This document shows positions 15,654 through 59,184 of a stretch of 64,000 nucleotides of DNA, piece after piece. Source of the DNA: a candidate division WOR-3 bacterium (GTDB taxonomy: Bacteria; Hydrothermota; Hydrothermia; UBA1063; CAJXJZ01); the NCBI GenBank assembly GCA_027038175.1, contig JALVYB010000079.1, positions 1,215 to 65,214 on the forward strand, in the 5' to 3' direction. Positions within the stretch are counted from its first letter, which is position 1; each line of letters starts with the position of its first letter. The notes under the pieces are model-generated. The model made no database searches. It was given only the letters and a program-made list of their open reading frames with translations, and was not told the origin of the DNA. A program made the translations under genes and the position numbers.

Positions 15654-15664
15654 TTCTCATCACC

Positions 15665-27249: not shown

Positions 27250-27848
27250 TTGTGAAAATCATTATGAAGCAGGGAATAAGAATTTTCAGACCCTCAGAAT
27301 TGGATTCCCTGATTGATGGTGTCGTGAACATTTGCACCAAGAGAAGTTGCGAGTATATGTGGTTTGAAATACTGAACGCTCTTCTCTACACGGGGATGAG
27401 GTACGTGGAATTGCAGAGGTTTGCTGGACATAAAGAATGGTTTGATAAAACCACAATGAGTATCTACCTGCCCAAAGAGGCATCCAGAAAGAAAAAGAGG
27501 ACGATGCCAGACAGATACGTGTATTTATCCTCACAAGGAGTGGTAATTGTTGATAACTTCCTGAGAAGAGTTAAAAAAGTTCCGCAACTGCGAAGTGCAA
27601 ATTGGATTTTGAAGAAAGCTTCTGAAAAGACTATTGGTTCAAAGGGGGTAAGTGTAAAATCCTTTCGCAAGACGTGGGAATCGTGGCTCGTAGTCAGTTA
27701 TCCAAATAGCATTCCTTTGATTTCCATGTCCCAAGGACACACAGAGCTTGTGAGTTTAAAACATTACCTCAACATTCCTTTCTCAAAAGAAGACATAAAG
27801 GAAATAAAGGTAAGAACTGCTGGGTGGGGTGGATTTAGAAGCGTGTAG
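27195..27848 (+). CDS. small tyrosine recombinase/integrase (apparently intact)
   Basis: Box I LYTGMRYVELQRF. KSFRKTWESWLV. SQGHTELVSLKHYLN, where the final Tyr is the catalytic candidate. 217 aa with an N-terminal methionine. Confidence 0.6.
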   Translation: MEEGIFDYGQVDQAQGGVIVKIIMKQGIRIFRPSELDSLIDGVVNICTKRSCEYMWFEILNALLYTGMRYVELQRFAGHKEWFDKTTMSIYLPKEASRKKKRTMPDRYVYLSSQGVVIVDNFLRRVKKVPQLRSANWILKKASEKTIGSKGVSVKSFRKTWESWLVVSYPNSIPLISMSQGHTELVSLKHYLNIPFSKEDIKEIKVRTAGWGGFRSV

Positions 27849-27923
27849 AAAAGTGATGTATATAAATGAATACCAAAATGCCTATTAGGCGATGCTAAAT
27901 TTTTTGGGATACCTTTATATACT

Positions 27924-33467: not shown

Positions 33468-35370
33468 AGGTGGGGCAAAGATAATAGCCAAAAACAGAGG
33501 AAAAGAATTTAAATATGTTCTGAAAGATATTCTGAAAGTAGTTGGTGAAGACGTAGAGGAAGCAAAGAAACTGATGAAAGACCCTTACAAAGCAGCCATG
33601 ATAATGTATGGAGGAGATGAATACGATTACTCATTTGGTTATTCTTTTGAGAATTTCATAAATAATATTAAAGACGATATGAGAAAATTAAAGCAAAATT
33701 CCCTAAAAGCAAAAGAGAGAGGGCTTACTGATGATGTTAATAGTTTTTACTTTGAGCTTTTGAAAACGTACAGAGATGCCCTCAGAGAAGAACTTGAGAA
33801 AGAGGGTTCCTTGGAGATTTTTGACTCAATACTCAAAAGCCTGTTCTACACGCACATTCTCTCCTTTCTCTACATTAATGGCTTCTTTTATGAACCCCAC
33901 CTTTCAAACTACGTTATAAAACGTCCCAGAGACTCCATTATCAAATTTGCAAATAGAGTTTTGTTTGATAATCCTTTTTGTTTAAATTTATTTAATGGTT
34001 GGAGTGATATGAACTTTGCAATTAGATTCATCTCGCTGTTTATGAAAGAAGGGGAAATAGATTTTCTCAAAGAGTTTCAAAAAACACAAGAAAAAGTCCA
34101 GAGGGAAATCAAAGAGATAGAAAATGAGCTTCCAGAAGGGTTTTGGGAATATGGGAAATTCTTTTTGAATAAAGATGAGCCTCCTTTCTTCAAAGATTAC
34201 AAACTTGCATTAAAATACGTAACAAGAATCACAAAACTATACTTCACAAAGTTATTTGAAGAAACCAAAAAAAATTTAGAGAAATATCGTACAAATCCGA
34301 ATTATGAAAATTGGTACGTGGTAAACTGGTGGGATGTTTTTAAAAAACTGGTATGGGATATAGAGAAGAAGGGGGCAATAATGGCTTACGAAGAGAGTGC
34401 AACTTATGGTAACGGAGTAAATGACGTTTTATCACAGGTAGGTTTTGGGTATTATGTAAAAAACAAGGAAGTATTCGATTTTCTGTTCAAAACAGACACT
34501 TTCCCCAAAATTAAGGGTTTTGAAAAGATAGAAAGGGAGGGAATCAGTTATGTTTCTCCTCTTATAAGTGGGTTACTTTACGATCCCCATATTGATATTT
34601 GTTATGATTGTCCATTACGAGATGATAAAGCAATTCTTTCTCCCATTCCCAAGGTACTAAACTACACTATTTATTCTGGAGATGAAATATACTTTTACAA
34701 GTTCAGGTTCCCGCTATTTCCTGTTAATAAAGACATAATTGATATTGCAGACAAGAAGGTTAATGAGACGATTCAGGTTGTGTTGGGTAAAATAAGAGAA
34801 ATGGTGTGGGAAAAAATCAAAAGACGAATGACACAAAGGGATGGAAAAACCAAGGAGGAAATTTTTAGAAAAATACTGAATATTCTAAACACCAAACATC
34901 CTCCAACTAAACCATCAAGCATCTACTTTTATTTTAAAGACGAAAGCATCTTTCACAAAAAGGATTTATCCATCGAACTGAGGCAACCGCTACCAAAAAT
35001 AACTGGAAATTTGCTAGAAGATATTAAAAAATACCTAGAACACGCAGACGTGGTTGCAATTAGTGAGTATTACATGACACGTGAATATGAGGGTTACATA
35101 AACATTTATTTTAAAGGATATGATGGACGTTTTCACCTAATAGAATCCGTGAACAAGTTTGGAGGTAGAAATAAACCTTTGATTAGTGATTATAATGTGT
35201 ATCCAGAATGGTTTACTGAAAACACACATGATGCAATCGAAAGCGAGTTAAAAAAGGTGCAAAAATTAATTAGAGTAGAGTTCAAGAAATTTCTGGAGAG
35301 AGAGGGTTTGATTTTGCGTGTTAAAGATTTGAACGAAGAAAAGGCCCATTCACAGGGGGTGGAGATGTGA
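33421..35370 (+). CDS. hypothetical 649-aa protein
   Basis: Long ORF overlapping the previous stop. Confidence 0.45.
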   Translation: MLLKRQIKEVVRLNYKGGAKIIAKNRGKEFKYVLKDILKVVGEDVEEAKKLMKDPYKAAMIMYGGDEYDYSFGYSFENFINNIKDDMRKLKQNSLKAKERGLTDDVNSFYFELLKTYRDALREELEKEGSLEIFDSILKSLFYTHILSFLYINGFFYEPHLSNYVIKRPRDSIIKFANRVLFDNPFCLNLFNGWSDMNFAIRFISLFMKEGEIDFLKEFQKTQEKVQREIKEIENELPEGFWEYGKFFLNKDEPPFFKDYKLALKYVTRITKLYFTKLFEETKKNLEKYRTNPNYENWYVVNWWDVFKKLVWDIEKKGAIMAYEESATYGNGVNDVLSQVGFGYYVKNKEVFDFLFKTDTFPKIKGFEKIEREGISYVSPLISGLLYDPHIDICYDCPLRDDKAILSPIPKVLNYTIYSGDEIYFYKFRFPLFPVNKDIIDIADKKVNETIQVVLGKIREMVWEKIKRRMTQRDGKTKEEIFRKILNILNTKHPPTKPSSIYFYFKDESIFHKKDLSIELRQPLPKITGNLLEDIKKYLEHADVVAISEYYMTREYEGYINIYFKGYDGRFHLIESVNKFGGRNKPLISDYNVYPEWFTENTHDAIESELKKVQKLIRVEFKKFLEREGLILRVKDLNEEKAHSQGVEM

Positions 35371-37388
35371 CAAAAAACAAAAATATCGAGAGGGGCCTTG
35401 AAAAAAAGAGATACGAAAGAAGTATAAAAAAATATTCATCCCAGATTGCCAAACGCCTTGAAGAGGTTTCAAACATCATTTTTAAGGATAAAGATTTGAT
35501 AAAAGATGAGTTTAAATCTTCGGTGCTGATTGTAAAAAATGTAGATTTGCTGGGGTCTGCGTTTGATGTCTTTTTTAAAAAGTTAAGTCTTTTCAAAAAG
35601 ATGTTGATTGAGAGTGAGCCTGATAGGCGTGAGCAGTTGCTTAATGGCTTTATTGCTGAATTAAGGGAGGAATTCAAAAAGAGGGGCATTTACAACGCTG
35701 TTGAGAGATTTTTCCAGTTTATTGTGGATTCAGTAATCATTCCAGAATATTACTATATGGGGGTGTTTCCTTACAACTTCTATGACAACATAAATGATTT
35801 TTCAAAGAGGATGATATATAGCAACAGAGATTCATTAGAAGGAAGGGGAACTTATTACATCTCTGGAAAATGGGATAGCGGTGGTTCTGAAAAAAGGTGG
35901 GTTAAAGGCAAAAAGTTGAAAATAGGAAAAAGAACCTACGACCCAACTTTCAGAACGGTAGAATACACCAATTACTTTTTTTTCAAAATGAAGAATGCCA
36001 TGATAACTTCTTCAACTATTAGTCGCATAGTTGATAGTGTTTTCCCATCCATCCACTACTACGACAAAATCAAAGAGTCGGGAGAGGTAATATCCAAAGA
36101 GGTAGAGGAGATAAAAAAAGAGATTCCAGAAGATTTCGTCAATCACTTTCTAGACTACGTGGCGTTATCAAAGGACTACTTTATGTTTAAAGATTTCGTG
36201 AGTGAGCGTATAGCAAAAGGGGAGTACTCGTTAAACTACAATGACCTTTCAAATGAATACAGGGACATTTTGAAAGAGCGTTTTTATCTCTTGTTAAGGG
36301 CCATGAAGGTAAGGATGATTAGGGACGGAAAGGCTGATGAGTGGAGAAAGATAGTGAGCTGGGGGAAAAAAGACAATTTGATTCTTATAGGCAAGAGTGA
36401 TTTGGCATCCACACGCAACATACATATTGGCTCACCAAGATGGTTAGTTACCGATATACATTTAAATAATGTGAAAGAATATTTGAAGAGGGGGACAAGC
36501 ATAAAAAACCAGAAATATCCTCATAGCCCCAACATCACTCCTTTGATTGATTGGTACAGATACAAGAACAAGGGTTCAAAGAAATCAATGAAAATATACA
36601 AATTAAGGTTCTTCATTCCAGAAATGGAAAACCTGCTCACCAGAGAGTCTTATCTTCACGAGGGGTTATATGAGTTTAACTTTTACATTGCAAACAAAAG
36701 AAGGTTTGAAAAATTCGTGGAGATGTTAAATGAAAGGCTCAACTGGTGGGTTTTACTGGAGAAGAGCAAAGAATGGATAGCAAAATCAAAAGGAAATAAA
36801 GCAACTGCTGAAAATATTATAAAAACGCTGAAAGACGGAATTGCGGATTCAAAGGCAATTATTGAAAAATACAAGAATGATACTCACCTTGCAAGTTCTG
36901 CTTTAGAGAGCTTGTCTGATGACTATGACATATATGTTCAAAAGATGGCTTCCACAAATTCCATAACCTTAATAGATATAAAGAACAAGAGGGTTCTAAT
37001 AGGCACATACAAAACCATCGAACAAAACCCTTCTAAACTTTTAGAAGCCATGAAAAATGCAGATTTGATTTTAACTAGCACTTATGATTATTCTAAACCA
37101 GAGTTTTCAACTATCACAACTTTCATAAAATTGAATGTGTACGTAAATAAAGGGGATGGTTTATTTGTTAAACGTTCATTGGGCAGCACTTACTGGCCAA
37201 TAAGAATCACATATTATCGACAATACCGCATATATTTCCCACAAAATGGCCCAGATGGGTTCGGCTCTATTTTCGAACTCTATTCAGACAAATTATACGC
37301 ATTTATTCAAGACGAAGTTAGGAAGATAATTAAGGAAATCATGTCAGCAACTGCTAAAAAAGAGGAGGTGATGGAAGTTGGAGAATAA
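35367..37388 (+). CDS. hypothetical 673-aa protein
   Basis: Long ORF with a 4-nt overlap to the previous stop. Confidence 0.45.
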   Translation: MTKNKNIERGLEKKRYERSIKKYSSQIAKRLEEVSNIIFKDKDLIKDEFKSSVLIVKNVDLLGSAFDVFFKKLSLFKKMLIESEPDRREQLLNGFIAELREEFKKRGIYNAVERFFQFIVDSVIIPEYYYMGVFPYNFYDNINDFSKRMIYSNRDSLEGRGTYYISGKWDSGGSEKRWVKGKKLKIGKRTYDPTFRTVEYTNYFFFKMKNAMITSSTISRIVDSVFPSIHYYDKIKESGEVISKEVEEIKKEIPEDFVNHFLDYVALSKDYFMFKDFVSERIAKGEYSLNYNDLSNEYRDILKERFYLLLRAMKVRMIRDGKADEWRKIVSWGKKDNLILIGKSDLASTRNIHIGSPRWLVTDIHLNNVKEYLKRGTSIKNQKYPHSPNITPLIDWYRYKNKGSKKSMKIYKLRFFIPEMENLLTRESYLHEGLYEFNFYIANKRRFEKFVEMLNERLNWWVLLEKSKEWIAKSKGNKATAENIIKTLKDGIADSKAIIEKYKNDTHLASSALESLSDDYDIYVQKMASTNSITLIDIKNKRVLIGTYKTIEQNPSKLLEAMKNADLILTSTYDYSKPEFSTITTFIKLNVYVNKGDGLFVKRSLGSTYWPIRITYYRQYRIYFPQNGPDGFGSIFELYSDKLYAFIQDEVRKIIKEIMSATAKKEEVMEVGE

Positions 37389-39300
37389 AAGCGTAGCGTT
37401 TTTATTGGGCAAAGCATTGCGAACTGCCAGAAAGATAAGTTATTTTTCAAATGGAGGTCAATTCGTGATAAATAAAGATGTATACAGGGAGATGAAGAAA
37501 TTTTTTGAAGATAGAGAAATGCAAAGATTTGTGAAAAAAAACCATCTAGATGTTCTTGAGATAATGAACGAGTGCGTGACTGAGGACTTTGAGATTGCAT
37601 ATCCTATTTATGGATACCCGACACTCGAAGACTTCAAAGAATATGTGAGAGATGTAATCGCATTGTTTGACAGAATAAAGGAAACGCAAATCGAAGGAAT
37701 AGAAAACATGGATAAATTCACCTTTCTGAAGGATTTTACACACGGGTTCGTGGATGAAAAGGACTGGGGTAAACTCAGAGGTTTAGTTTATGATGAAGTG
37801 ATGAAAATTGAAGAATACTCAAGAGAATTTGGCATAATATCTATTCTCACAAGTCGGATGAGGAAAGCACGTCCCAAGGATTTAGAAACTTTACTTTTAG
37901 CTGTAAAGATATTCGCACCAGAGCTTATGAATAAGATAAGCAATGTGATGATAAAAGCATTCATCAAAAACGATACCGAAGCCTTGGAGAGAGCTTCAAA
38001 ATACAAAAACATAATCGGTTTGAGCGATGTTGCCAGAGCAAACCTTTACATTTTCGTGGAGAGCTTGGTAACGTTTCTTGTAGAAAACTACTTGGTGAAA
38101 GATAAAAACCCAGACAAGATGAAATACCTTCTCAATGCGTTCTATTTGAACATTGAAGGAGTTGAAAAATCCTCAACCGTGGAAAACTACGGTAGGGAAA
38201 TACTCAAATTTAGCATAGCGTTCTTGCTGTCTTTAAAAGATGCTTTTAAAAGGAATGGTTTTGATATTGAGAAATTTTTGGGCGAGTTAGACAAAGATGC
38301 GGAGCATGGGTGGGTTGCGGTAGTGAGAGAGAGATACGAATCAGCCAGATTGTCTACTGTCATGCTTCTTCCTCATTACTCTACCCCCACACTATCCCTA
38401 GAAAAGCTTGAAATAGAAAAAACACCGAACTATCTCCTGCCCAAAATTAACCTTGAACATTTTAAAATGTTCAAGGTATCAAACAATTCAATAATAATAC
38501 CAAAAAAAGTAATGGCAGAAACCTTGAAAAAAACAAAAAACGGATTAAACTTCAAATACTTTCTGGAAATCTACAATGCGTTTATGGATTTGCTATATGC
38601 AAAGCCATTTGAGGAGAATTGGGATGAGAAAACCTTGCAAAGCCACGGCTTATCAAAAGACACGACTTTCCTTGATTTGATGCTCAATTATATGCCTCTT
38701 AATATGGAGATTGTTGATGATGAGAAATTCCTTGATTTCCTAAACAATGATTTTAAAAGAATCCCAATAGACAAAACCTCTAGGAAAATCTATATACTGA
38801 CTGACAAGGGAGAGGCATTTATTTGGAGTAAAAATTGCAGCAGCAAGATTAATGAGATAAAGCAACTGCTACCTCACGCATTAGTAATTGGTTACTTTAA
38901 AGAAGGTTCACGCTACACCAACAAGATTGGTTTAATCAGGATAAACGATAAATTCCTCGAAGTGAAAAATATTAAAGATCCTCTTGAAAATCTTGTATTT
39001 CCCTTTTGGTTAAGAAAGTTGAGTATGCTTGGAGACCTAATTAGCATTACCATCATAAAATACGCCTTCCGTACTTTCAATAAGGCAACTACCGAGATGG
39101 GTGAATATGAAAAATTGCCCACAATCAATGGAAAAAGGTTCAACAATTGGAATCATTACTGCAACTACATCAGAGATGAAAAATTGGAGGATGTTTCCAA
39201 CGAGAAATTTAGCCTCGTGGAATCCGAGATGCGTAAATGGCTCCATGAACTTACAGAAAAAGCAAAAATAAAAGAAAAAGAAATGGGGGTGGAATTTTGA
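37378..39300 (+). CDS. hypothetical 640-aa protein, paralog of 39297-41309
   Basis: Shared blocks: IFAPEL, KYKNII, RNGFDIEKFLGELD against NRGIDITKFLNELD, FKYFLEIYNAF against FDYFLEIYNSF, EIKQLLPHALVIGYF against EIEQLLPHALVVARF. Confidence 0.5.
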   Translation: MENKSVAFLLGKALRTARKISYFSNGGQFVINKDVYREMKKFFEDREMQRFVKKNHLDVLEIMNECVTEDFEIAYPIYGYPTLEDFKEYVRDVIALFDRIKETQIEGIENMDKFTFLKDFTHGFVDEKDWGKLRGLVYDEVMKIEEYSREFGIISILTSRMRKARPKDLETLLLAVKIFAPELMNKISNVMIKAFIKNDTEALERASKYKNIIGLSDVARANLYIFVESLVTFLVENYLVKDKNPDKMKYLLNAFYLNIEGVEKSSTVENYGREILKFSIAFLLSLKDAFKRNGFDIEKFLGELDKDAEHGWVAVVRERYESARLSTVMLLPHYSTPTLSLEKLEIEKTPNYLLPKINLEHFKMFKVSNNSIIIPKKVMAETLKKTKNGLNFKYFLEIYNAFMDLLYAKPFEENWDEKTLQSHGLSKDTTFLDLMLNYMPLNMEIVDDEKFLDFLNNDFKRIPIDKTSRKIYILTDKGEAFIWSKNCSSKINEIKQLLPHALVIGYFKEGSRYTNKIGLIRINDKFLEVKNIKDPLENLVFPFWLRKLSMLGDLISITIIKYAFRTFNKATTEMGEYEKLPTINGKRFNNWNHYCNYIRDEKLEDVSNEKFSLVESEMRKWLHELTEKAKIKEKEMGVEF

Positions 39301-41309
39301 GTGTTGAGGAAAAAGATTTGGAAACTTTGGGAAAAATACTGCGAATTTTAGAGGATACTCCGTATGTAGAGAGAGAGCGAAGATTTCACGAGGACGAAAG
39401 AATTAAGATTTTATTAAACAAAATCCCAGAATTAAAAGATATGGTTTTGGATTTTTTGGAATTTAAAGAAAATTCGATAGACATTCAACTAAACACAAAG
39501 AACCCAGCAGAGTTTTTTGAGTTTTTCTCACATTACATAAAAGCCATGACAAAATTATATACTTCCTTCAAAAATAATCATGCAAATGAATTTAAAACCA
39601 TAAACAAGACTGATTTTCTGAAATATGTTACTTATGGGTTCTTCAGGGAAAATGAGAAAATGAGAATCAAAAACATGGTGACTAATGAAATAAGATTGAT
39701 GAACAAATATTTTAGAAAATATGGGTTTGTATCGATGGTAACTTTTGTTAAGTTTCCAAAATACTATTTCAAGATGTATGGGGATAAATACGAAGAATGG
39801 GATATTTGGGAGGCTGATTATGAAAAGCTGTCATGGATTATAAATATATTTGCACCAGAACTTGGAAAAGAGGTAGCCAATATGGTAAAAAACCTATTTA
39901 ACAAAAGAATAGACGAGAATATTGCTACCGCAGAAAAATACAAAAATATAATAAATGCGTTCCGCTCCAATATATGTACTGATGAATCCTTTACCATTGC
40001 CAGAAACATTATAAAGTTCTTCATGAACTATATAACTAATGATGACAATACAGAACTGACAAGCAACTATATAGATGGAATAATTCATCTAAACATTTTA
40101 TATGAGCCATACAAAACACGCACCTCTTATGATTCATTAGGAACTGAAGTAGTCAAACGAACAATTGCATTTTTATTAACAATTTCCAATTATTTAAAAA
40201 ATAGAGGTATTGACATTACAAAGTTTTTGAATGAACTAGATAGTGCTTTAGAAAAGGGTTTTGTAGCAGTACAAAAATCCCAAAAACACACTCAGATAGA
40301 TAGAATAATGACCACAACTATGCTAGTGCCTAACAAACTATTCCCTACTATAATCAGTTATATGTGGAGGCCTATGTATTCTATGAACATTAATGATGTG
40401 GATTTCCCGTTTTTCGTGTTGAATAACTGGGATTCTGAGAATTTCACAGAGTATACTTACTTTGTAATACCAAAAAAATGGTTCTTGGAGGCTTTTAACA
40501 CAAATAGTGGGAAGAAAAACTTTGATTACTTTCTGGAAATTTACAATTCTTTCAAAAAACTTTTAGCATACAAAATTGAATTCGGCTATACTGAAAACTC
40601 AAAAATAAACACCGATGTATACACCTTAATTAAAGCACTTGACTCCCCTCAAATAAAAATCCAAAAAAATGAAGAGGTGCTGGATAATCTGAAAAACAAA
40701 ATAGAAAAACACGCTTCAGATGAAAATACACACACAGAGATTGTGATGCTAACAGATGATGGGAGATTGTTTATTTGCAGAGGTAAGTGTAGTAAAAGGA
40801 TAAAAGAAATTGAGCAGTTGCTACCTCACGCATTAGTGGTTGCAAGATTTTTCTTCATCAAAGGGAAAGACGAACATGATAAAGAAGTTATAGAGCTTAC
40901 CGATGAGTGTGCGTGGATTAGAACTGAGCAGAACGAATTTCTAAAGCTTCCGCCCCGTAATATCTACGATGATGTCTCCTATGAATCCATCATAATAAGA
41001 ATGAATGAAATTTCAGAAGGGCTACGTTTAGACTTCCCAGAGAATCTTATAAATGCCACAAACAAGTTTAACAAGATGGTAAACTACATTTTTGATGTTT
41101 TAAATAAAACTTCACAGGGAAATTTGAAAATAGGTAAAAACACAGAATTAACATTAGAAAAGATAGTACATTCTTGGGAAAAAACCGTCGAAGAAATTGC
41201 CATAAAATTCCAGAATGAGACGTCAAAACATTTTTTATCAGTAATCAAAAAGTGTTACACAGAACTGTTGGAGAGTGCAAAAATAAAAGATGTGGATCTT
41301 GAATTGTAG
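39297..41309 (+). CDS. hypothetical 670-aa protein, paralog of 37378-39300
   Basis: See the paralog blocks listed for 37378-39300. 4-nt overlap with the previous stop. Confidence 0.5.
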   Translation: MSVEEKDLETLGKILRILEDTPYVERERRFHEDERIKILLNKIPELKDMVLDFLEFKENSIDIQLNTKNPAEFFEFFSHYIKAMTKLYTSFKNNHANEFKTINKTDFLKYVTYGFFRENEKMRIKNMVTNEIRLMNKYFRKYGFVSMVTFVKFPKYYFKMYGDKYEEWDIWEADYEKLSWIINIFAPELGKEVANMVKNLFNKRIDENIATAEKYKNIINAFRSNICTDESFTIARNIIKFFMNYITNDDNTELTSNYIDGIIHLNILYEPYKTRTSYDSLGTEVVKRTIAFLLTISNYLKNRGIDITKFLNELDSALEKGFVAVQKSQKHTQIDRIMTTTMLVPNKLFPTIISYMWRPMYSMNINDVDFPFFVLNNWDSENFTEYTYFVIPKKWFLEAFNTNSGKKNFDYFLEIYNSFKKLLAYKIEFGYTENSKINTDVYTLIKALDSPQIKIQKNEEVLDNLKNKIEKHASDENTHTEIVMLTDDGRLFICRGKCSKRIKEIEQLLPHALVVARFFFIKGKDEHDKEVIELTDECAWIRTEQNEFLKLPPRNIYDDVSYESIIIRMNEISEGLRLDFPENLINATNKFNKMVNYIFDVLNKTSQGNLKIGKNTELTLEKIVHSWEKTVEEIAIKFQNETSKHFLSVIKKCYTELLESAKIKDVDLEL

Positions 41310-50269: not shown

Positions 50270-50623
50270 GTGGTAATGTTGAAAATCGTATGCACGAAGG
50301 CGGGAGATGGTTGGATATGTGAGTACGACGAAAGAGAGATGAAAATGTTTGTGTGGGATAATGGTTTAGATGGATTTTACAAAGAGCTGCTGAAAGCAAC
50401 GCATCCAAACATAGAACCATCGGAAGAAAAACTTTCGCTTTGGAAGATAAACCCAGAAAAAATCTACATTCCCGTGGAATTAAAAAACCACATTGAAAAG
50501 GTAGTAAAGGTAAAGGATGGAGAAAAGGCACTTGAGAACGCATTAATAAAAAATTTAAGAGATGAAGAATTTGTTAAAAGCGGGTTTGTTGTGATAAATA
50601 AAGGTGCATTTGAGAGAAGGTGA
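50270..50623 (+). CDS. hypothetical protein
   Basis: 117-aa ORF. Confidence 0.35.
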   Translation: MVMLKIVCTKAGDGWICEYDEREMKMFVWDNGLDGFYKELLKATHPNIEPSEEKLSLWKINPEKIYIPVELKNHIEKVVKVKDGEKALENALIKNLRDEEFVKSGFVVINKGAFERR

Positions 50624-50630
50624 TCTCAAG

Positions 50631-51413
50631 ATGGTAGTCCTAAGCAACGATGCCAGTACTATACTTGGAAAGAAGGTGTTTTCGTGGAACCCGCTGAAAG
50701 GTTCATGCAAGTATAAGTGCAGGTATTGTCTAGCCAAAGAAATGATGAAAAAGTATCCTCACATTAAAAAGAAGTATTCGGGAGAGATTGATATTGATGA
50801 GGAGGCTTTGTCTGTAAAGTTCCCAAAGGGAGCAGCTATTCTAATTTCTTCCATGAACGATTTGTTTGCTGATTATGTGGATGATGAGAAAATAGAGAGA
50901 GTAATTGACGTCACGAAGAAATGGGATGAGAAAGAAAGAGAGTTCATATTCATCACGAAAAACCCAAAAAGGTACTTTGAGTTCATAGACCTTTTTCCAT
51001 CGCACACTTACCTGTCTACCATCATAGAATCCACAAAAAATATCAACAAGACAAAAGCCCCGCACCCAAAAGATAGGTACGCTTATATCAGGGATTTATC
51101 CTTTAAGCTCAATTTACACATGATTGAAGGCATCCATACGGGATTGTTCTTGCATCCCTTGCTTGATTTTGATTTAGAGACTATGTCAAAGTGGATTAAA
51201 AATGTAAGCCCAAAGTTTGTAGTAATTGGTGGAGCAAACATAAAAAATGCACCAAAGCCAGAGGGAGAGAAAGCATACAGGCTCGTAATGGCAATTTTGG
51301 ATGCCAAAATCCCTTGTATCAAATTGAGAAAAGGGTTAAAGTTGGTTATTGGTAAAGAGTATTACAAAGAGTTAATGGGTTATGCCGAAGCAGTTGCTGA
51401 AATGAGGGTATGA
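50631..51413 (+). CDS. three-Cys-motif radical-SAM-like protein (phage Gp37/Gp68, DUF5131-like)
   Basis: SWNPLKGSCKYKCRYCLA fits the WNP..GC...C..CYA signature. Start refined to ATG 50631 after GAAGGTGATC; the ORF-track frame opens at 50604. Confidence 0.45.
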   Translation: MVVLSNDASTILGKKVFSWNPLKGSCKYKCRYCLAKEMMKKYPHIKKKYSGEIDIDEEALSVKFPKGAAILISSMNDLFADYVDDEKIERVIDVTKKWDEKEREFIFITKNPKRYFEFIDLFPSHTYLSTIIESTKNINKTKAPHPKDRYAYIRDLSFKLNLHMIEGIHTGLFLHPLLDFDLETMSKWIKNVSPKFVVIGGANIKNAPKPEGEKAYRLVMAILDAKIPCIKLRKGLKLVIGKEYYKELMGYAEAVAEMRV

Positions 51414-52073: not shown

Positions 52074-53675
52074 CTAAATCAGCGAAACTATCGCATAGTA
52101 TCTCTCTTTACCATCATCATCCACATCCCTTATGTACACTATGCCCTCTTCAATAAGACGTTGTAAAAGTCTTGAAGCTTTTGCTTCATCGCTCTCTATA
52201 TCCCTAGCTAATGCCTCTCTAACAAAAGATTCCTCATACCACCCGTCTGGATTCCGCATATTTAAAGATTGCAGCATTTCATTGATCCTTATTGTCTTCA
52301 GAAAATTTCTCCTTTCAAGCAGGATAGTTGATGCTATGTTATGCTCATTTCTAATCCTGTTAATATTTGCGTCGTAGAACCTATCAAGCATAACTTGAAG
52401 GTACTCTTCCCAGAAAACGCTGTCTGTGTTCTGAATGCCCAATCTATCTAATGAGTCAACCACCCTCATTATATGCTCTCCAAACCCTCCCGCCTCACGC
52501 AAAGAAAACAACCTCATTCTCAATCCTTCGTTATGAGCAACATCATCTGGAATTAACGTCAAGTTGTAAATTTCTGGGTAATTCTCCTTGATTTTTTCGA
52601 TTATTTTTGGTATGACTATCTCCCTCCCGCTAGTGTCTATAAGAGGCGATTTAACATAATTGTAAAACGAAAAATAGGCAATATCAAAAATTTCCTCTTG
52701 CAATATGTCCTCTTCTATAAATATCGCCTCGCTTCTTTCAGGCACGTATATTAAATCAGACATGGTAGTTATGCCAACCTCTTCATTAAAGGCCTTGGAA
52801 TAATCAACCTGTGTGATTTCGCTGTGTTCCACCCTGCTCTTATCCGACCTGTGCCACAAAAATGAGAAGTATTCTAAGGGTTTTTTCACAAAATAACCTA
52901 CTGGGTGAGTGTAAGTAGCAGTTGCTACATTAAGTTTGTCATAGATTCTTACCTTGGGCTTGAATCTCTTGTAGAGGTGGGATGGTATGATGCTTTTGAG
53001 TGTGTTCCACTCTTCGTTTTTTACGGAATAAGACTCTCCAAAAGTGAGAAGGCTAGTGGTTATCCCACCCACTCTTCCGTAAATTGTTGAAGAAGCGGTG
53101 AGTTTCAGTAAAAGAGGTTTGGCCAAATCTTCCGAAGCAGAACGATAAACGATAGCACGGACATTTCTCCCGTTGAGTTTTGGCGGAACAAAGTTGAGAT
53201 ATTCGTTTCTACTTACCTTTGAAATGTCTTCCGCCAGAATAAACACTCCTTGAAGTGAACTTGCCTTATAAGGCAGGTATTCTCCAAAGTGCATTAATTT
53301 ACCTTGAACACGAAAAATATTACCTTTCATCTCGCTCTTCAATTTTCCTATACTACCCACCTTGCTTTCAAGAAGCAGAACGAACACTCCATTATTTTTT
53401 AACTTAGAAACACTGCCCAAGGCATTCACGTCAAAAGAAGGTGTTAAGATAGCAAGTGCGTATTTTTCTCTACCCCTGAACAGATAACTGAGTGCATTTT
53501 CATAGTTTTGTATTCCTCTTACTCTAAACAGATAGCCTATCAAATCAACCTCTTTCCTATCTCTAACTGAATAATTTGAGAGCTTTTCGACAAATTTGCG
53601 ATACTCTCTCTCCATATAGGATTCTTCTGAAATCAGATAGTCGTCTAACCTTATGTCCCACAACTCTTTAGACAC
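52074..53675 (-). CDS. hypothetical 533-aa protein with C-terminal winged-helix-like segment, transcribed away from the iteron region
   Basis: Long ORF. The C-terminus RLLQRLIEEGIVYIRDVDDDGKERYYAI is wH-like. Its promoter would lie in the repeat region. Confidence 0.45.
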   Translation of the reverse strand: MSKELWDIRLDDYLISEESYMEREYRKFVEKLSNYSVRDRKEVDLIGYLFRVRGIQNYENALSYLFRGREKYALAILTPSFDVNALGSVSKLKNNGVFVLLLESKVGSIGKLKSEMKGNIFRVQGKLMHFGEYLPYKASSLQGVFILAEDISKVSRNEYLNFVPPKLNGRNVRAIVYRSASEDLAKPLLLKLTASSTIYGRVGGITTSLLTFGESYSVKNEEWNTLKSIIPSHLYKRFKPKVRIYDKLNVATATYTHPVGYFVKKPLEYFSFLWHRSDKSRVEHSEITQVDYSKAFNEEVGITTMSDLIYVPERSEAIFIEEDILQEEIFDIAYFSFYNYVKSPLIDTSGREIVIPKIIEKIKENYPEIYNLTLIPDDVAHNEGLRMRLFSLREAGGFGEHIMRVVDSLDRLGIQNTDSVFWEEYLQVMLDRFYDANINRIRNEHNIASTILLERRNFLKTIRINEMLQSLNMRNPDGWYEESFVREALARDIESDEAKASRLLQRLIEEGIVYIRDVDDDGKERYYAIVSLI

Positions 53676-53780
53676 ATAAACTTAATGTTTTTTAAAATAT
53701 ATTAATTTTGCGTTGCTTTAAATACTCATGATAAGGGCAAAAAATCAATTGCCGAAGGGTAGCAATCGTCGAACTTTGTT

Positions 53781-54370
53781 AATTTCCGCTCCAAAGTGAT
53801 GCAAAAATTCGTGTATTACTTGTTCGGGAGATAAATTTTACCTCCTTTCACATATATATATTCGATTTCCGCTCCAAAGGGGTAAGAAGGCAAACCCTCT
53901 TTAACCATTTTTATAAGACACATGATATTGAACAGAATAAGGGTCATTCTACCCAATATCGTGTAATATATCTTATTTGTGTTTAGATATTTATGCCTTT
54001 TCATTTTTATTTAAATGATAAAGATATACTATATATATATTCCGAAAAATACTTAAAAAGAAAATATACTCCCTCATTTTTTGTCAATTCGTTGATTAAC
54101 GAAATGTTAAATTAAACATATCGGTTTTGAGAGCAATATGGGGATACCCTTTTCACATTTTAGAGCGGAAATTGAATATATAAGACAAATTTCCGCTTTT
54201 TTTGACGCAAAATTAGTGTAGAACTCAATTTCACAATTTTTAGAGCGGAAATTAACGGTAAAACGTTGCTTTCAAGCAAAATTAGTGTAGAACTAAAAAA
54301 CTACATTTAGAGCGGAAATTAACGGGCGGTTTTTTCCGTCACTCTATACACTATTAATTTCCGCTCTAAA
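53781..54370. repeat. iteron cluster: at least 7 copies in both orientations of TTTAGAGCGGAAATT(AACGG), plus 2 copies of CAAAATTAGTGTAGAACT, in a 700-bp AT-rich intergenic region; candidate replication origin and/or centromere
   Basis: Copies at 53781, 53864, 54158, 54187, 54238, 54306 and 54355. Tandem roughly 67-bp units at 54238 and 54306. Adjacent to an Orc1/Cdc6 gene and a ParA operon. Confidence 0.55.
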
Positions 54371-54391
54371 CACTTTCACAATTGCCGAAAA

Positions 54392-55021
54392 TCATCTTTC
54401 TGGTGAGTGTTCCCACCATCCATCCCTGTCCAGCTTCTTCACGAAACTTAACATTTGAGAACCAAACCTCTTCGCATAGCTGAACAGTTTTCCCTTGTCC
54501 AGTTCCTCCAAGAACATATCGTCCAGATCGGAGAGTAGGCTATTCAAGGAATACTTGCCTTTGAAATAGCGGAAGTAAATCATGTCCAGTACTGCCTTTT
54601 CAGGTTCGGCGAAGGCAACGCCAGAAGGATGTTCCGTGTATCCAAAGAACAGCACGGGTGAGATTTGATGGTACTCCACGAAGTAATTTCCCAGAACCAA
54701 GGGCTTCGTTTTGACATTCTTCAAAGTCACGATGGTGAACGTGTAAATGTTCTGCTTGTAGATGTCTCCAGATAACGCATACTCCATGGATGCGTAAGAG
54801 GGCTTTTTGTAATCCAAGGCAATTTTGAGGTAGTTTTGAGGCACAAAAGGGTTCAAGTACTGCCCACGCAATCCTTTTGAAACCACTCCGCTCTTCACCA
54901 GACGGCTCAGGGCAGTTGATAGAGTTTCTCTTTTCATGTTTAAAGCACCTGCTAACTCACTCACGGTGAATACTTTTTTTCCACTCTTACGCATATATGC
55001 CAGAATTCTCACGGCACTCAT
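54392..55021 (-). CDS. winged-helix regulator with AbiEi-antitoxin-like architecture
   Basis: N-terminal FTVSELAGALNMKRETLSTALSRLVKSGVV is a wH/HTH. The C-terminal domain resembles AbiEi_4-type proteins (weak). Confidence 0.4.
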   Translation of the reverse strand: MSAVRILAYMRKSGKKVFTVSELAGALNMKRETLSTALSRLVKSGVVSKGLRGQYLNPFVPQNYLKIALDYKKPSYASMEYALSGDIYKQNIYTFTIVTLKNVKTKPLVLGNYFVEYHQISPVLFFGYTEHPSGVAFAEPEKAVLDMIYFRYFKGKYSLNSLLSDLDDMFLEELDKGKLFSYAKRFGSQMLSFVKKLDRDGWWEHSPER

Positions 55022-55119
55022 CTCTTCACCTTCAAATTCTTACATATATGTTATATATAGCCGTAAAATATATAAACATTTCTGTTTAGAGTGGAAAATT
55101 TAATATAACAAAAATGTAG

Positions 55120-55151
55120 TTTTTGATACAAGATGATTATTTTTGATACAA
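55120..55151. promoter_or_regulatory. two direct copies of TTTTTGATACAA in the AT-rich cdc6 upstream region
   Basis: Copies at 55120-55131 and 55140-55151. A degenerate iteron (TTTAGAGTGGAAAATT) lies at 55087. Confidence 0.35.
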
Positions 55152-55191
55152 TTACAAAAAAGTTATATACAATTATAGCAATACCCTAAGT

Positions 55192-56613
55192 ATGTGTGCT
55201 GACGGGTTTGGTGGGGACGATAACTATCTTCTAAAAATACTCAAAGAAAGAGATAAGGGATTCTCTTATAACTTGAGCGTGTTTGATGACTACAATATAC
55301 CTCCCAAGATTCTTCATAGAAAAAAAGAGATTGAAACGTTGCTTGGATATGTTCTGGGAATAATAAGAGGAGAGTTGAATAAGGTTGATTTGAACATTTA
55401 CGGGCTAACAGGAACGGGGAAAACAGTTACCACCAAAAAGATAATGAGAGACACAAAAGAGTTTATGAAAAGGAAAGACTATAAACAGCAAGGTTTTAGG
55501 AAAATTGATTTCCTTTATTTCCACGTCTATTCCGAGATGTTACCAGCATCTTTTTTTAGTGAGATGAACAAGTGGTTGTTCAAGAAAACATATAGCCCAA
55601 AAAAAGGCCTGTCTTCTCTCGTGAGTTTATTTATGGGCAACTTAGATAAATACATGAAATCAAACGGCTTGGACGCTTTAATTCTTGTTATTGATGATAT
55701 TCACAGGGTTAAAAATATGGATTATTCTGCTTTTGCGGGAATACTGAGAAACACGTATAACAACAACGTTTCCCTGTGGCTCATATCCAATAGTGCCATC
55801 AAACCGCATCTTCCGTTAGAACTTCAAGCGAACCTTTTAGGAATGAAATTCAGGAGATACGATGTGGGAGAGCTTCTGGAAATATTTGCGATGTACGTTC
55901 AGAACGCAGGTGCTGAACAATGTTTTAGTGATTTGACTGCGTTTATGAGGGATTTGGCCAGTTGGGTGGAAGTTCATGCAAAGTCAAGTGTGAGGGCTGG
56001 ACTAATTGTTCTGAAACACGCATTGCTCTCTATGATTAATGACGGTAGAAACACAATCACTCAGGAAGATATGGAAAAGGGCAAAGAGATGGTTAAAATA
56101 GTTGATATTACAGAAATGTTAGAGACGATGAGGAGCGAGTTAGTTTTGACTCTTGTCCTTGCATTAAGGAGAATGGCAATTGAAGGGAAGGAAGGCATAA
56201 ACACCATCCAGTTATACAAAGATTTCAGGAACTATGTGTCTTACTACATACCTTTTTCAAGATCAAAGGATTTGAGCATGAGGGAGTTCAGGAACTTTAT
56301 AGCCGATTTGGAAGAGCTTGGTTTAATTATGAGAGAGCAGGTTGGTAAAGGAAGGGGCAAAGGGAGTGAGAGTTTGTTGTATGTGCAGGAAGGATTAAGT
56401 ATTGTTCAAGCTTTTGTGGATTTGATAGAAGGAAACAAGAACACTTCTTGGGTTTTTGAAGACCCGAAGTTACTGGTGAGCATATCAAAGAGCAATGCAC
56501 CGCTTGTTCTCTACGATAGCTTCACGCAGAAAATAAGAGGCATGGTGGATATGTTTGAGAAGGATGGGAAAGTGTATGTTTCTTATTCAAAGCCTTATGA
56601 ATTCGGGGGGTGA
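55192..56613 (+). CDS. Orc1/Cdc6-family AAA+ initiator protein
   Basis: HRKKEIETLLGYVL...NIYGLTGTGKTVTTKKI is the Orc1/Cdc6 N-terminal arrangement with Walker A. Walker B LILVIDDIH. The length (473 aa) allows a C-terminal wH domain. Confidence 0.6.
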   Translation: MCADGFGGDDNYLLKILKERDKGFSYNLSVFDDYNIPPKILHRKKEIETLLGYVLGIIRGELNKVDLNIYGLTGTGKTVTTKKIMRDTKEFMKRKDYKQQGFRKIDFLYFHVYSEMLPASFFSEMNKWLFKKTYSPKKGLSSLVSLFMGNLDKYMKSNGLDALILVIDDIHRVKNMDYSAFAGILRNTYNNNVSLWLISNSAIKPHLPLELQANLLGMKFRRYDVGELLEIFAMYVQNAGAEQCFSDLTAFMRDLASWVEVHAKSSVRAGLIVLKHALLSMINDGRNTITQEDMEKGKEMVKIVDITEMLETMRSELVLTLVLALRRMAIEGKEGINTIQLYKDFRNYVSYYIPFSRSKDLSMREFRNFIADLEELGLIMREQVGKGRGKGSESLLYVQEGLSIVQAFVDLIEGNKNTSWVFEDPKLLVSISKSNAPLVLYDSFTQKIRGMVDMFEKDGKVYVSYSKPYEFGG

Positions 56614-57107
56614 TTCGTGTGCGTTTAGAGAAGGAGGAGAGAATATTGCTCATTCAAAACAACATACTTAGGAAAAAAGAGGATTTGTTTGCCTTCAAAG
56701 CAACCGTTAGAAAGAGGGGCAATGGATGGGTTTTTTTTGTACCCAGTTATATAGTCAAGAAGTTTAACATAAGAGAGGGTTCTGTTTTGAGTTTTTATAT
56801 TTTAGAGCTTTGGCAGTCGGTTAAATCACTAAAAGGGAAGGAGATAATCAAAACGGAACTTTTGAGCGAGATGGGAAAACCGATAATAAAATTCAAAGAT
56901 TATGAAGTTTCTTTCTTAAAAGTTAAAAGTTTTGGAAAAAGATACAAGTATGCGGTTATATACATACCAAAGGATTATATATCAAGATATAATATTAAGT
57001 CTGGAGATGCAATAGGCGTTCACATAACGTCTGTCGGGGGTGGTGGTATTCGTGAACATTATGACTCAGAAGGATATGATAGAAGCGATAAAGAAGGCAA
57101 AACCTGA
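56610..57107 (+). CDS. protein with two AbrB/MazE-like swapped-hairpin repeats
   Basis: FKATVRKRGNGWVFFVPSYIVKKFNIREGSVLSF and KRYKYAVIYIPKDYISRYNIKSGDAIGVHI both fit the pattern ..IPK.....I..GD.V. Overlaps the cdc6 stop. Confidence 0.4.
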   Translation: MIRVRLEKEERILLIQNNILRKKEDLFAFKATVRKRGNGWVFFVPSYIVKKFNIREGSVLSFYILELWQSVKSLKGKEIIKTELLSEMGKPIIKFKDYEVSFLKVKSFGKRYKYAVIYIPKDYISRYNIKSGDAIGVHITSVGGGGIREHYDSEGYDRSDKEGKT

Positions 57108-58143
57108 AGAAAGGTACAAGTTCGCAGGAGACGAACTTTTGTATGAGAATTGCCCTGAATGCTTTTTTATGTTGGCGATGGATGAAAACAACAGGGTTCG
57201 CATGGAACTTGCAAAGAGGTTTTATGTTTACAAAGACAGAATGAGATTTCTCACGATTGCTACTGACCCCAACCCAGGGGTTAGGAGAATTATGTTTGAA
57301 GAGATAATGAAGTTCAAGCCACATTTTATGGAATTGTTTGTTGAGAATCCACCTCTTGCAGTTATGTATTCGCTTGGAAGAGACAAGGCTTTGGTGAAAA
57401 AGTTTTGGCTGTCTTGGTATAGCTATTTGAGACATAGGGTTGGGTATTTCATAGAGACTCCTGAAGAAGAAAAGACCCGTGGCAAGATGGGGTTAGCGAA
57501 GTGGTTGCATCTATATGAGGAGGAGCCAGAAGAATACGAGAATATGTTAGCAACTGCTAAAAAGGCAGTATTGATACAATTGTTATCTAGGCCTGATGTT
57601 GGGTTGGTGTTGCGGAAGTTATCCAAAGATGAGATGAACTTTTACGAAAGGGCGAATGGGTTTGGGGCTTATTTGGACAGGTTACAATTAAGTATGCACC
57701 CGTACTTTGCTTACTACTCTCCATTTAGCAAAGCGGTATTTTATATTAATGAAATCAACAGGGCTGTAAAGAAGGTGTGGAAGAAATGCGGGAGGTACAA
57801 TTCAGAAGTAGGTTATTTTCTGGTGCCAAAAAGAAGCAGTAAAGATGTTTTAAAAAATCCGATGGTTATTTGGGAAATGTTGCAGTTGAATTTTGTAGGA
57901 ATTCACAAAATTTTGTTTGACTTGAACGCAATAAAGGGCAAATGGACAAAGAACGATTTTGTAAGGAGAGTTATGAAGAAAGAAATATTTGAAGATAGAG
58001 AAGTCATAGAATCGATATTCACGCTGCTTCTTTCAAGGGCGTCTCTGGTTGAATTTTTTGATGGTAAATATTCTGCTGTCAATCTTCATTTGGGTCTCAA
58101 TAGTTTTGTGAGGGAAGGAAGTTTTGACATAGATATTAGTTAA
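57040..58143 (+). CDS. hypothetical 367-aa protein
   Basis: Long ORF. A start at about 57067 is possible. Confidence 0.4.
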   Translation: MVVFVNIMTQKDMIEAIKKAKPEERYKFAGDELLYENCPECFFMLAMDENNRVRMELAKRFYVYKDRMRFLTIATDPNPGVRRIMFEEIMKFKPHFMELFVENPPLAVMYSLGRDKALVKKFWLSWYSYLRHRVGYFIETPEEEKTRGKMGLAKWLHLYEEEPEEYENMLATAKKAVLIQLLSRPDVGLVLRKLSKDEMNFYERANGFGAYLDRLQLSMHPYFAYYSPFSKAVFYINEINRAVKKVWKKCGRYNSEVGYFLVPKRSSKDVLKNPMVIWEMLQLNFVGIHKILFDLNAIKGKWTKNDFVRRVMKKEIFEDREVIESIFTLLLSRASLVEFFDGKYSAVNLHLGLNSFVREGSFDIDIS

Positions 58144-58150
58144 GAAGTAT

Positions 58151-58195
58151 TAATTTCCGCTCTAAAACCATTAACGGTTAACCATTAACCGTTAA
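58151..58195. promoter_or_regulatory. iteron copy TAATTTCCGCTCTAAAACC followed by the perfect palindrome TTAACGGTTAA-CCA-TTAACCGTTAA upstream of parA; candidate operator/centromere
   Basis: The same 15-mer as the ori-region iterons. 11-bp perfect arms. The TTAACGG core is also the 3' part of the iteron unit. Confidence 0.5.
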
Positions 58196-58235
58196 AAGAT
58201 AATTTTATATACTTACAATACATATCGTCATACAG

Positions 58236-58970
58236 ATGTCGGACATAAAATATGTTGGGATTTTTACAACGAAGGGGGGCGTTGGGAAGACAACAATATC
58301 CGTGAACGTGGCGGAGATGGTTGGCTGGAGGGAGAAAGTTCTCCTGCTTGAGATGGATACGAATCACTCAATAACCTCACTTCTCAAGGTTCGGGCAACC
58401 AAAATTAGTGAGATAAAGAAAGGTGTTTCTCCTCGCAAGGTTGGTAATTTTTATCTAGTTTCTATGGATGGAGAAACACAGAAAGTTGAGAGAACCATTC
58501 CACCAGAAAAGATTATGAATGGGATTGGCAAAGCACTTGCTGATTTTGATAAAGTGATAGTTGATTTTCCCAGTACTATTTCGCCTTTGGTTCTTTATTT
58601 AATGGACAGGATGGATTTTGTTGCGGTTCCGTTTGTTCCTTCTTTCTTGGGTTTGGGTGCATGGTATTACACTAAAAACATTTTTAAAATTTTAGGGTAT
58701 GATTCTTATGGTTTGTTTTTGAATATGTGTAAGTTTTCCCTATTTAGATCCAAGGAGGAGAGAGAGTTAATGGAGAGGTTAAATAGGGAGGAGAAGTTCA
58801 TGAAGGGTTTGGCTATTCCTTATGACAGGCGGGTTTTAAGAGCGGAAAAGCTCCATGTACCCGCAGTTGCTGAATTTCCCAAGTCAAGGTTCTCCAAAGG
58901 TATTGAAAAGTTTGTTAAACGTGTTTTTGGGGGTGATATGGTTGCCAACGATAGGATTAAAAGTAGATGA
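58236..58970 (+). CDS. parA: ParA/MinD-family partition ATPase
   Basis: Deviant Walker A GIFTTKGGVGKTTIS. A short ORF follows immediately. Confidence 0.65.
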   Translation: MSDIKYVGIFTTKGGVGKTTISVNVAEMVGWREKVLLLEMDTNHSITSLLKVRATKISEIKKGVSPRKVGNFYLVSMDGETQKVERTIPPEKIMNGIGKALADFDKVIVDFPSTISPLVLYLMDRMDFVAVPFVPSFLGLGAWYYTKNIFKILGYDSYGLFLNMCKFSLFRSKEERELMERLNREEKFMKGLAIPYDRRVLRAEKLHVPAVAEFPKSRFSKGIEKFVKRVFGGDMVANDRIKSR

Positions 58971-59184
58971 TGAAACGAAAAAGTTATGGGATATACTGAA
59001 CAAGCATCCAGATAGGGTAGGTACTGCTGAATTGAGAAAGGCTTTGAAGCGGATTATAGAAGAATACAGGTGGTGGATTGAAAGGTACGAATCCATAACG
59101 GAGAAAAAGGGGATTGAAGAAGGGTTGGATATTTCAGAAGTATTCGTCATGGCTGAAAAGGACATATTAAAAGAATTTGAGTGA
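58933..59184 (+). CDS. small protein downstream of parA (candidate partition adaptor / centromere-binding partner)
   Basis: The frame overlaps the parA 3' end. The likely GTG/TTG start near 58933-58942 gives about 83 aa. Confidence 0.35.
   Translation: MIWLPTIGLKVDDETKKLWDILNKHPDRVGTAELRKALKRIIEEYRWWIERYESITEKKGIEEGLDISEVFVMAEKDILKEFE

Follow-up and report, generated by a model that had tools for sequence, protein, structure and literature searches.

A candidate replication origin of ORB-like iterons near a divergent orc1/cdc6 gene on a probable archaeal conjugative plasmid

Archaeal replication origins consist of an AT-rich region flanked by origin recognition boxes (ORBs) beside a cdc6 gene, and the ORBs are diverse and initiator-specific (PMC4010727). 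Pyrococcus has two ORB clusters around cdc6 (PMC1904270), and a regulatory role has been proposed for the downstream ORB cluster of Haloarcula (PMC4010727). We describe a locus resembling these origins in a 64-kb stretch of DNA (contig JALVYB010000079.1, positions 1,215 to 65,214; hereafter the window), in which copies of a 15-17-bp repeat, or iteron, are gathered in one intergenic region near an orc1/cdc6 gene (cdc6) and recur singly as far as the start of parA, a gene for a partition ATPase. The replicon carrying the window is most likely a ∼94-kb circular archaeal conjugative plasmid, and it was compared with a sister plasmid (L062, a 57.6-kb contig), a third plasmid (L082), and two short contigs (L080 and L081) with further Cdc6 relatives.

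The locus has much in common with the Orc1/Cdc6 origins of archaea (Pyrococcus oriC, Sulfolobus oriC1 and oriC2, Methanothermobacter, and haloarchaeal chromosomes and megaplasmids): polar inverted repeats are set about the most AT-rich DNA near cdc6, extra copies flank cdc6, and the repeat sequence co-varies with the initiator. Unlike those origins, however, its repeat exchanges four central bases of the consensus (TTAGAGCGGAAAT versus TTWCACTTGAAAT) and lacks a G-string, a gene of the AbiEi type separates the array from cdc6, the initiator is a member of a very rare clade and carries a C-terminal extension of ∼75 amino acids (aa), and cdc6 is followed by an AbrB-like gene and a gene with a CxxC motif.

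Large plasmids of Methanoperedens are also similar, being archaeal plasmids of ∼100-200 kb and ∼39% GC on which Orc1/Cdc6 is flanked by repeats and a long AT-rich intergenic region, ParA lacks an obvious ParB, and origins were predicted from sequence only (PMC9674854). No detectable close protein homology to the window plasmid was seen, and the latter differs in having type IV secretion-like conjugation genes and in that its repeats could be resolved to a specific ORB-like motif. Bacterial iteron plasmids (F, P1, pPS10, R6K) likewise carry repeated initiator sites at the origin, with additional sites, among other places at the initiator promoter, through which autoregulation or a limit on copy number could be achieved; here, by contrast, the initiator is an AAA+ Orc1/Cdc6 rather than a Rep_3-type winged-helix Rep, there are no DnaA boxes, and the host machinery is archaeal. 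In the omega system of pSM19035 and the inc18 family, short 7-bp repeats precede the gene for the partition ATPase, and the idea is that a single small repressor links copy control with partition. The window also has 7-bp repeats in front of its partition ATPase gene, but these heptads (TTAA at a period of 7) and the ORB-like iteron are different sequences, and a common binder is nowhere indicated. We conclude that the locus most likely adds one more replicator-initiator pair to the known archaeal kind, carried by a rare and new conjugative plasmid family, and is not a new kind of element.

The iteron array and the origin-like region

We consider the 716-bp intergenic region at 53676-54391 to be the probable vegetative replication origin of the plasmid (probability about 0.6), in which diverged mini-ORBs would be bound by the plasmid's own Orc1/Cdc6. 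This reading is favored over its rivals because the equivalent repeat of the sister plasmid matches an ORB consensus and because most copies have no gene to drive.

The iteron, TTTRGAGCGGAAATT(RA), has eight copies in the window at up to two mismatches, all within 53781-58166; five are exact (54159, 54239, and 54306 on the plus strand, 54356 and 58152 on the minus strand) and three have one or two mismatches (53781 and 53864, minus; 55085, plus). At the same threshold none was found elsewhere in the window or in the further plasmid sequence on contigs L001 and L078, which brought the search to ∼84 kb of the plasmid. With up to three mismatches allowed, TTTAGAGCGGAAATT matched 14 times in the window as compared to 3.8 expected, and none of 100 dinucleotide-preserving shuffles got to 14; the repeat announced in a preliminary description of this DNA is thus real and non-random. 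The copies and the features interleaved with them are as follows.

53781 to 53795, minus strand: outer left iteron, TTTGGAGCGGAAATT, one mismatch (motif search)
53864 to 53878, minus strand: inner left iteron, TTTGGAGCGGAAATC, two mismatches, followed by GAATATATATATGTGA (motif search)
53950 to 54100, no strand: candidate duplex-unwinding element, 22% GC (GC profile)
54159 to 54173, plus strand: inner right iteron, exact, followed by GAATATATAAGAC (motif search)
54187 to 54196, minus strand: half-site AGCGGAAATT, 10 bp, in a 10-bp inverted pair with the 54159 copy, 14 bp apart
54201 to 54297, plus strand: second repeat of 28 nt in two copies (core GCAAAATTAGTGTAGAAC at 54207 and 54276), interleaved with the right-hand iterons
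54239 to 54258, plus strand: exact iteron with the 3' extension AACGG (motif search, direct repeat)
54306 to 54325, plus strand: exact iteron with the 3' extension AACGG, in a 17-bp inverted pair with 54354-54370
54354 to 54370, minus strand: exact iteron, 22 nt beyond the stop codon of the AbiEi-like gene (motif search)
55085 to 55099, plus strand: degenerate iteron TTTAGAGTGGAAAAT, in the 170-bp, 22% GC spacer of the divergent AbiEi-like and cdc6 genes
58150 to 58166, minus strand: solitary exact iteron, from 7 nt past the stop codon of a 367-aa gene to 70 nt before the parA start

The intergenic region therefore holds six full iterons and the half-site within ∼600 bp, and the earlier count of at least seven in ∼600 bp is reached only when the half-site is included. 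Alignment of the copies with their flanks gave TTTRGAGCGGAAATTRA as the conserved unit, with no conserved sequence upstream and no G-string. Spacings are irregular (80, 67, 50, and 83 bp), and both orientations occur. The preliminary description had named a degenerate CRISPR-like array among the findings that would overturn it; mixed orientations, irregular spacing, and a repeat of 15-17 nt all speak against such an array. Rfam and tRNA scans returned no match, no shuffle matched the observed count, and the architecture is kept in a plasmid whose Cdc6 is only 38% identical, so that an explanation of the pattern without a functional element, be it as chance repeats, a CRISPR-like remnant, or a known structured RNA, is scarcely credible.

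The minus copies at 53781 and 53864 and the plus copies at 54159, 54239, and 54306 point away from a 280-bp core of 28% GC, and the 100 bp at 53971-54070 (17% GC) have the lowest GC content of any in the window. To the right of the core, the three plus copies are followed by a fourth that is inverted (54354-54370), with the half-site in addition, and the inner iteron pair is part of a 43-nt imperfect inverted repeat (the 53864 side with 54140-54182). Inverted repeats thus flank the most AT-rich DNA of the window, and, as the HMM (hidden Markov model) and fold evidence given below identifies the initiator, the earlier proposal of an origin-like region beside an Orc1/Cdc6 gene is upheld. Its surroundings had been misdrawn, however. 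The region is not flanked divergently: the gene of a 533-aa protein and the AbiEi-like gene are both on the minus strand, and the array lies past the 3' end of the former's neighbor, the AbiEi-like gene, and before the 5' end of the 533-aa gene. Nor does the main array lie ∼170 bp upstream of cdc6, whose start is 822 bp from the array's last copy with one gene between; 170 bp is the length of the AbiEi-cdc6 spacer, which holds the degenerate copy only.

A 62-aa open reading frame (ORF) called within the origin-like region had no homologue and no family match; Thermococcales origins also overlap small orphan ORFs (PMC4640148). A sigma-70 promoter scan was uninformative (17 found, 15.4 expected). 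The sequence CAATTGCCGA is directly repeated, with one copy at each edge of the region (53746-53755 and 54379-54388), and, in the sister plasmid at 14666-14679, forms the center of a perfect palindrome, CCTCGGCAATTGCCGAGG, adjoining an ORB copy. It was dropped as a further shared site, as its statistics in the window alone were not significant.

The sister plasmid and a probable link to known ORBs

In the sister plasmid an analogous repeat of different sequence, TTACATTT(G/A)AAATTAA, has three minus and two plus copies about an AT-rich core, two more upstream of cdc6 (one of them overlapping the cdc6 TATA box), and one directly after the operon. Of the related replicons, in which the preliminary description had suggested a motif search, the sister plasmid has this counterpart with its altered sequence and the third plasmid has neither version. 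Short flanking blocks are common to both origin-like regions, namely AAATT(G/A)AATATATAAGAC after the inner plus copy and AGTGTA(G/C)AACTAAAAAA; the GAATATATAAGAC block 3' of the 54159 iteron is kept at 14539-14556 of the sister plasmid, and AGTGTAGAACTAAAAAA, part of the 28-nt repeat, is kept there as well.

The ORB consensus of Methanobacteriaceae is TT[TA]CACTTGAAAT (Ori-Finder 2, Table 1; PMC4164010). The repeat of the sister plasmid, taken as TTACATTTGAAAT, agrees with it at 12 of 13 positions, and sites with at most two mismatches to the consensus number seven in that plasmid as compared to 1.8 expected (0 of 200 shuffles got to seven). The window repeat keeps the frame TTA.A....GAAAT and agrees with the consensus at 9 of 13 positions and with the sister repeat at 12 of 17. 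Because the window iteron holds the same positions in a homologous module as the ORB-type repeat of the sister plasmid, the simplest reading of these alignments is that it is a diverged mini-ORB, a specificity variant paired with a diverged Orc1/Cdc6. The preliminary description, which compared the repeat with the TTCCAGTGGAAAC type only, had concluded that it does not match the ORB consensus and would be a different recognition element, a verdict that the wider comparison does not support.

If the region is the origin, each 15-17-bp iteron would take one molecule of the plasmid Orc1/Cdc6 through its winged-helix and AAA+ domains, and the inverted sets would place the initiator at both flanks of the AT-rich core. 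Opening of the duplex and loading of the host MCM helicase would take place in that core. The solitary copies that bracket the cdc6 operon (55085 and 58152) would, by analogy with Haloarcula, most likely serve autoregulation or copy-number control, and the degenerate copy at 55085 is a candidate autoregulatory site.

Archaeal plasmid origins have seldom been defined, and shuttle vectors are built from replicator-initiator pairs; the 716-bp origin candidate and its 473-aa initiator make up a compact, testable pair. The sister plasmid, with its different repeat and 38%-identical initiator, offers a natural specificity variant with which to map how the Orc1 winged helix reads its site. Worth noting are a natural switch of ORB specificity, a conserved operon of cdc6, an AbrB-like gene, and a CxxC-protein gene, and the C-terminal extension of the initiator.

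The Orc1/Cdc6 initiator and its neighbors

The genes around the array are the following.

52074 to 53675, minus strand: 533-aa protein with its start facing the origin-like region; sub-threshold C-terminal winged helix-turn-helix (wHTH) matches only
54392 to 55021, minus strand: AbiEi-family wHTH protein, 209 aa (PADLOC E=7.8e-25)
55192 to 56613, plus strand: 473-aa initiator, a divergent Orc1/Cdc6; Walker motifs A (GTGKT) and B (DD), winged-helix domain, ∼75-aa C-terminal extension (HMM, fold)
56610 to 57107, plus strand: 165-aa protein with two weak AbrB/MazE-like segments, encoded next after cdc6 in all four family members
57040 to 58143, plus strand: 367-aa protein with a conserved CxxC motif and a sub-threshold HEAT-repeat match; third gene of the cdc6 operon

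The 473-aa protein matched TIGR02928 orc1/cdc6 over residues 28-392 (E=1.8e-26) at 92.8 bits, below the curated cut-off of 181, and Cdc6_C, the winged helix, only weakly (E=1.1e-4). When a two-sequence profile was compared to PDB sequences, Orc1-3 and Orc1-1 of S. solfataricus ranked first, and the top matches of the predicted fold were all ORC/Cdc6 proteins, DNA-bound archaeal Orc1 being the best (2v1u_A, template modeling score [TM] 0.71; 2qby_B, TM 0.72), with a model of moderate confidence (predicted local distance difference test [pLDDT] 68 overall, 70-90 in the core). GTGKT, DD, and a sensor arginine are invariant in a four-member alignment. By profile and predicted fold, then, the protein is a true but divergent Orc1/Cdc6.

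Its clade is very rare. Only four proteins fell below 1e-30 in an exhaustive profile search of 1.84 billion cluster representatives, and at least two of the four, those of the window plasmid and its closest relative, are accompanied by conjugation genes of type IV secretion-like character. A word-indexed protein search gave one close homologue (that of the sister plasmid, 38% identity) and the exhaustive search two more, whereas a metagenome scan with the Cdc6 profile gave distant generic Orc1 only (21-32% identity) and a viral scan nothing. The two more distant relatives are on contigs of 2.3 and 6.3 kb, which are too short to show an origin and bear no iteron array. Homologues of the 367-aa gene follow in the window, in the sister plasmid, and in L080; the L081 contig ends before that point.

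No Rep-family (Rep_3/RepA-type) initiator was matched by any neighboring protein, which leaves no sign of a Rep-iteron replicon, and no AbiEii partner for the 209-aa AbiEi-family protein was found among the neighboring proteins, which do not form an AbiE toxin-antitoxin pair. AbiEii genes are present in the sister plasmid, where one is paired with the AbiEi homologue, and in the third plasmid. PADLOC returned no defense-system match for the cdc6, AbrB-like, or 367-aa products. The preliminary description had called the 533-aa protein a winged-helix protein, a label for which we find only the sub-threshold C-terminal matches; the protein is unrelated to the 489- and 502-aa proteins beside cdc6 in the sister plasmid. 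Just 5' of the likely cdc6 TATA box, at 55120-55151, are two direct copies of TTTTTGATACAA, 20 bp apart, which may serve the AbiEi-like or the AbrB-like protein as an operator.

A number of observations weigh against assigning the origin to the array. Its comparative support comes from one related locus, that of the sister plasmid; the four central positions of the window repeat differ from every published ORB consensus, and because these bases are replaced, a scan with the ORB consensus at up to three mismatches missed the repeat. GC skew tracked the coding strand and gave no origin signal, ∼18 kb of the plasmid is unseen, and the AbiEi-like gene stands between the array and cdc6. Several iterons have TATA-like sequence 3' of them, which fits promoters too, and two other DNA-binding candidates lie beside the array, namely the AbiEi-family protein and the AbrB-like protein, whose weak AbrB/MazE signals are kept in all four operons.

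The last two points favor a reading in which the iterons are operators of a plasmid transcription factor (the tandem AbrB-like protein or the AbiEi-family wHTH protein) and form a regulatory or copy-control hub for the 533-aa gene, cdc6, parA, or small RNAs. The sister-plasmid copy on the cdc6 TATA box fits such a role, and a bacterial antitoxin reported to control plasmid copy number directly (PMC7848731) is a precedent for it. However, in the window plasmid and the sister plasmid alike the majority of copies are directed toward the 3' ends of convergent genes, with no gene for them to drive, the AbiEi promoter region of the sister plasmid is without a copy, and the motif is in no other promoter of the plasmid. 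The near-perfect ORB consensus of the sister repeat also points to Orc1/Cdc6, and we thus judge a transcription-factor operator array to be unlikely. A general promoter motif was rejected, given the absence of the motif from every other operon and the orientation of most copies toward convergent 3' ends.

The parA region and the plasmid

Three features make up the parA region.

58171 to 58195, no strand: four TTAA heptads (TTAACGG TTAACCA TTAACCG TTAA) at an exact 7-bp period, directly upstream of the parA TTTTATATA box
58236 to 58970, plus strand: ParA-type Walker ATPase, 244 aa (Pfam ParA 2.6e-10; PHROG ParA-like 8.6e-16)
58942 to 59184, plus strand: candidate ParA partner, 80 aa, 54% identical to the protein in the same position on the third plasmid

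The perfect palindrome reported upstream of parA, TTAACGGTTAA-CCA-TTAACCGTTAA, is present at 58171-58195 with its 11-bp arms and is equally well described as the four heptads. The partner candidate had no family match, and a ribbon-helix-helix fold is only a guess from its sequence pattern, the model (pLDDT 66) being too low in confidence for a fold search.

In both the window plasmid and the third plasmid, parA is the first gene of a cluster leading to VirB4, and the third plasmid has the parA, 80-aa, and conjugation genes as a homologous cluster. Upstream of its parA TATA box are ∼9 CTTAA repeats at a 7-8-bp period, and neither version of the ORB-like repeat was matched in this plasmid. Because parA there is accompanied by a CTTAA array and by neither ORB-like version, we assign the heptads to par, and they are probably a par-associated element that would act before the parA promoter as operator or centromere of the ParA partner. 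The exact iteron at 58152, on the other hand, would belong to the replication module and be a separate element. In the sister plasmid a copy sits in the same place, directly after a 268-aa homologue of the 367-aa gene, and the next gene encodes a small Orc1-like ATPase and not ParA; the position of the 58152 copy is therefore explained by the conserved end of the cdc6 operon.

These comparisons do not support the earlier claim that the site is shared specifically between the origin and parA, from which a single protein coupling replication to segregation had been proposed. A protein recognizing the same site at both places (e.g., Orc1/Cdc6 at 58152, regulating parA or tethering the partition complex) would be in keeping with the exactness of the 58152 copy, its position 5 bp from the heptad array, and the phase of its TTAA (21 bp, or three heptads); both the iteron and the heptads are identical in a contig from a sister sample. 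The 11-mer CAAAATTAGTG of the second origin repeat could be added to this, as it recurs within parA (58400) and directly upstream of the parA heptads of the third plasmid (position 1881), besides 54208, 54277, and 9261 of the window. Its enrichment is weak, however (6 versus 2.8 expected at up to one mismatch; 5 of 100 shuffles got to 6), and it was dropped as a further shared site. With a copy in the sister plasmid at the operon end without parA, and with parA in the third plasmid without either ORB-like version, recognition of both places by one protein is distinctly unlikely. The juxtaposition of iteron and parA is better explained as two neighboring modules, although a functional link of replication and segregation is possible; the phased TTAA, the TTAACGG ends of two origin iterons, and CAAAATTAGTG near parA hint at one, each with weak statistics. 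We are similarly doubtful of a bolder proposal in which iteron and heptads, being in helical phase, form a composite site where Orc1/Cdc6 and the ParA partner meet, physically coupling origin licensing, parA expression, and segregation, with the AbrB-like and CxxC proteins as new accessory factors of the initiator.

Short repeats arrayed in both orientations often make up plasmid centromeres (R1 parC, TP228 parH, the pSM19035 heptads), which lends something to the idea that the iterons are themselves a partition centromere (parS), recognized by the ParA partner or by some other protein that binds centromeres, with the origin-like region doubling as a segregation site. One exact copy adjoins the parA promoter region, and the sequence of the first heptad at parA, TTAACGG, also closes two origin iterons. 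Yet the enrichment of ATTAACGG is weak (4 versus 1.6 expected; 5 of 100 shuffles got to 4), the equivalent copy in the sister plasmid precedes a gene that is not parA, and the array at parA in the third plasmid is of the 7-8-bp CTTAA kind and not of either ORB-like version. A centromere made of iterons is accordingly very unlikely, and the two-module explanation, with iterons for replication and heptads for par, is kept.

Two smaller observations concern the same sites. A short hairpin, TCCGCAC(T/C)TGCGGA, stands before each of the two ORB copies bracketing the cdc6 operon of the sister plasmid, within a 40-nt block that is 93% identical between the two (9830-9869 and 12526-12565), and the 58152 copy of the window likewise has the heptad palindrome before it in its own orientation. 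A weak ninth iteron-like site, TTAAGAGCGGAAAAG (core AGAGCGGAAA exact), lies at 58836-58850 on the plus strand, inside parA toward its 3' end and ∼100 nt ahead of the partner gene, and may be due to chance.

The window bridges without a break both ends of a 94,018-bp ENA contig (JOHN19-1_SAMN10217875 scaffold_82), and the coordinate offsets imply what appears to be a circle of ∼93,963 bp, the contig ends overlapping by 55 bp. Over its first 5.7 kb the window is 99.84% identical to the ENA copy and fully identical to a Logan contig. A BLASTN search of 53400-59000 in plasmid and phage collections gave no match, and a scan for exact 17-mers in a genome collection gave 60 loci with one chance match each and no related replicon. 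The plasmid is read as conjugative because, within 13506-17154 of the window, it encodes a VirD4/TraG-type coupling protein (TrwB_AAD_bind, E=2.6e-35) and, just past the window end, a VirB4-like ATPase (L001 19095-20942). Beside the coupling protein is a 238-aa protein whose homologue in the sister plasmid is a weak Relaxase match. The two plasmids have in common the coupling protein, the relaxase-like protein, a giant Ig-repeat protein, a radical-SAM protein, and the AbiEi homologue.

Several other features of the window were recorded. A 2607-aa ORF at 17972-25795 (minus strand) is made of many repeats of ∼270 nt (∼90 aa); because its homologue in the sister plasmid has bacterial Ig-like (Big) domain matches, it is probably a surface adhesin of the conjugation apparatus. 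Five successive ORFs of 640-715 aa at 31320-41309 (plus strand), all without a Pfam match, may be a paralogous series, and at least the last two have a 73-nt stretch in common at 73% identity. A segment of ∼480 bp is present in duplicate over paralogous small genes (5082-5563 and 27366-27850; 71-76% identity, 22.3 kb apart). The junction motif GAGGAGGTGGTGCGGGATG, a strong Shine-Dalgarno sequence with a start codon, recurs at successive gene boundaries (7041-9219 and 37362-37389), which suggests translational coupling in a small-gene operon. Finally, the plasmid has genes for a Cas4-like PD-(D/E)XK nuclease and for a DUF5131 protein (12269-13009 and 50604-51413), and DUF5131 also adjoins a Cdc6-MCM pair on an unrelated contig (L063).

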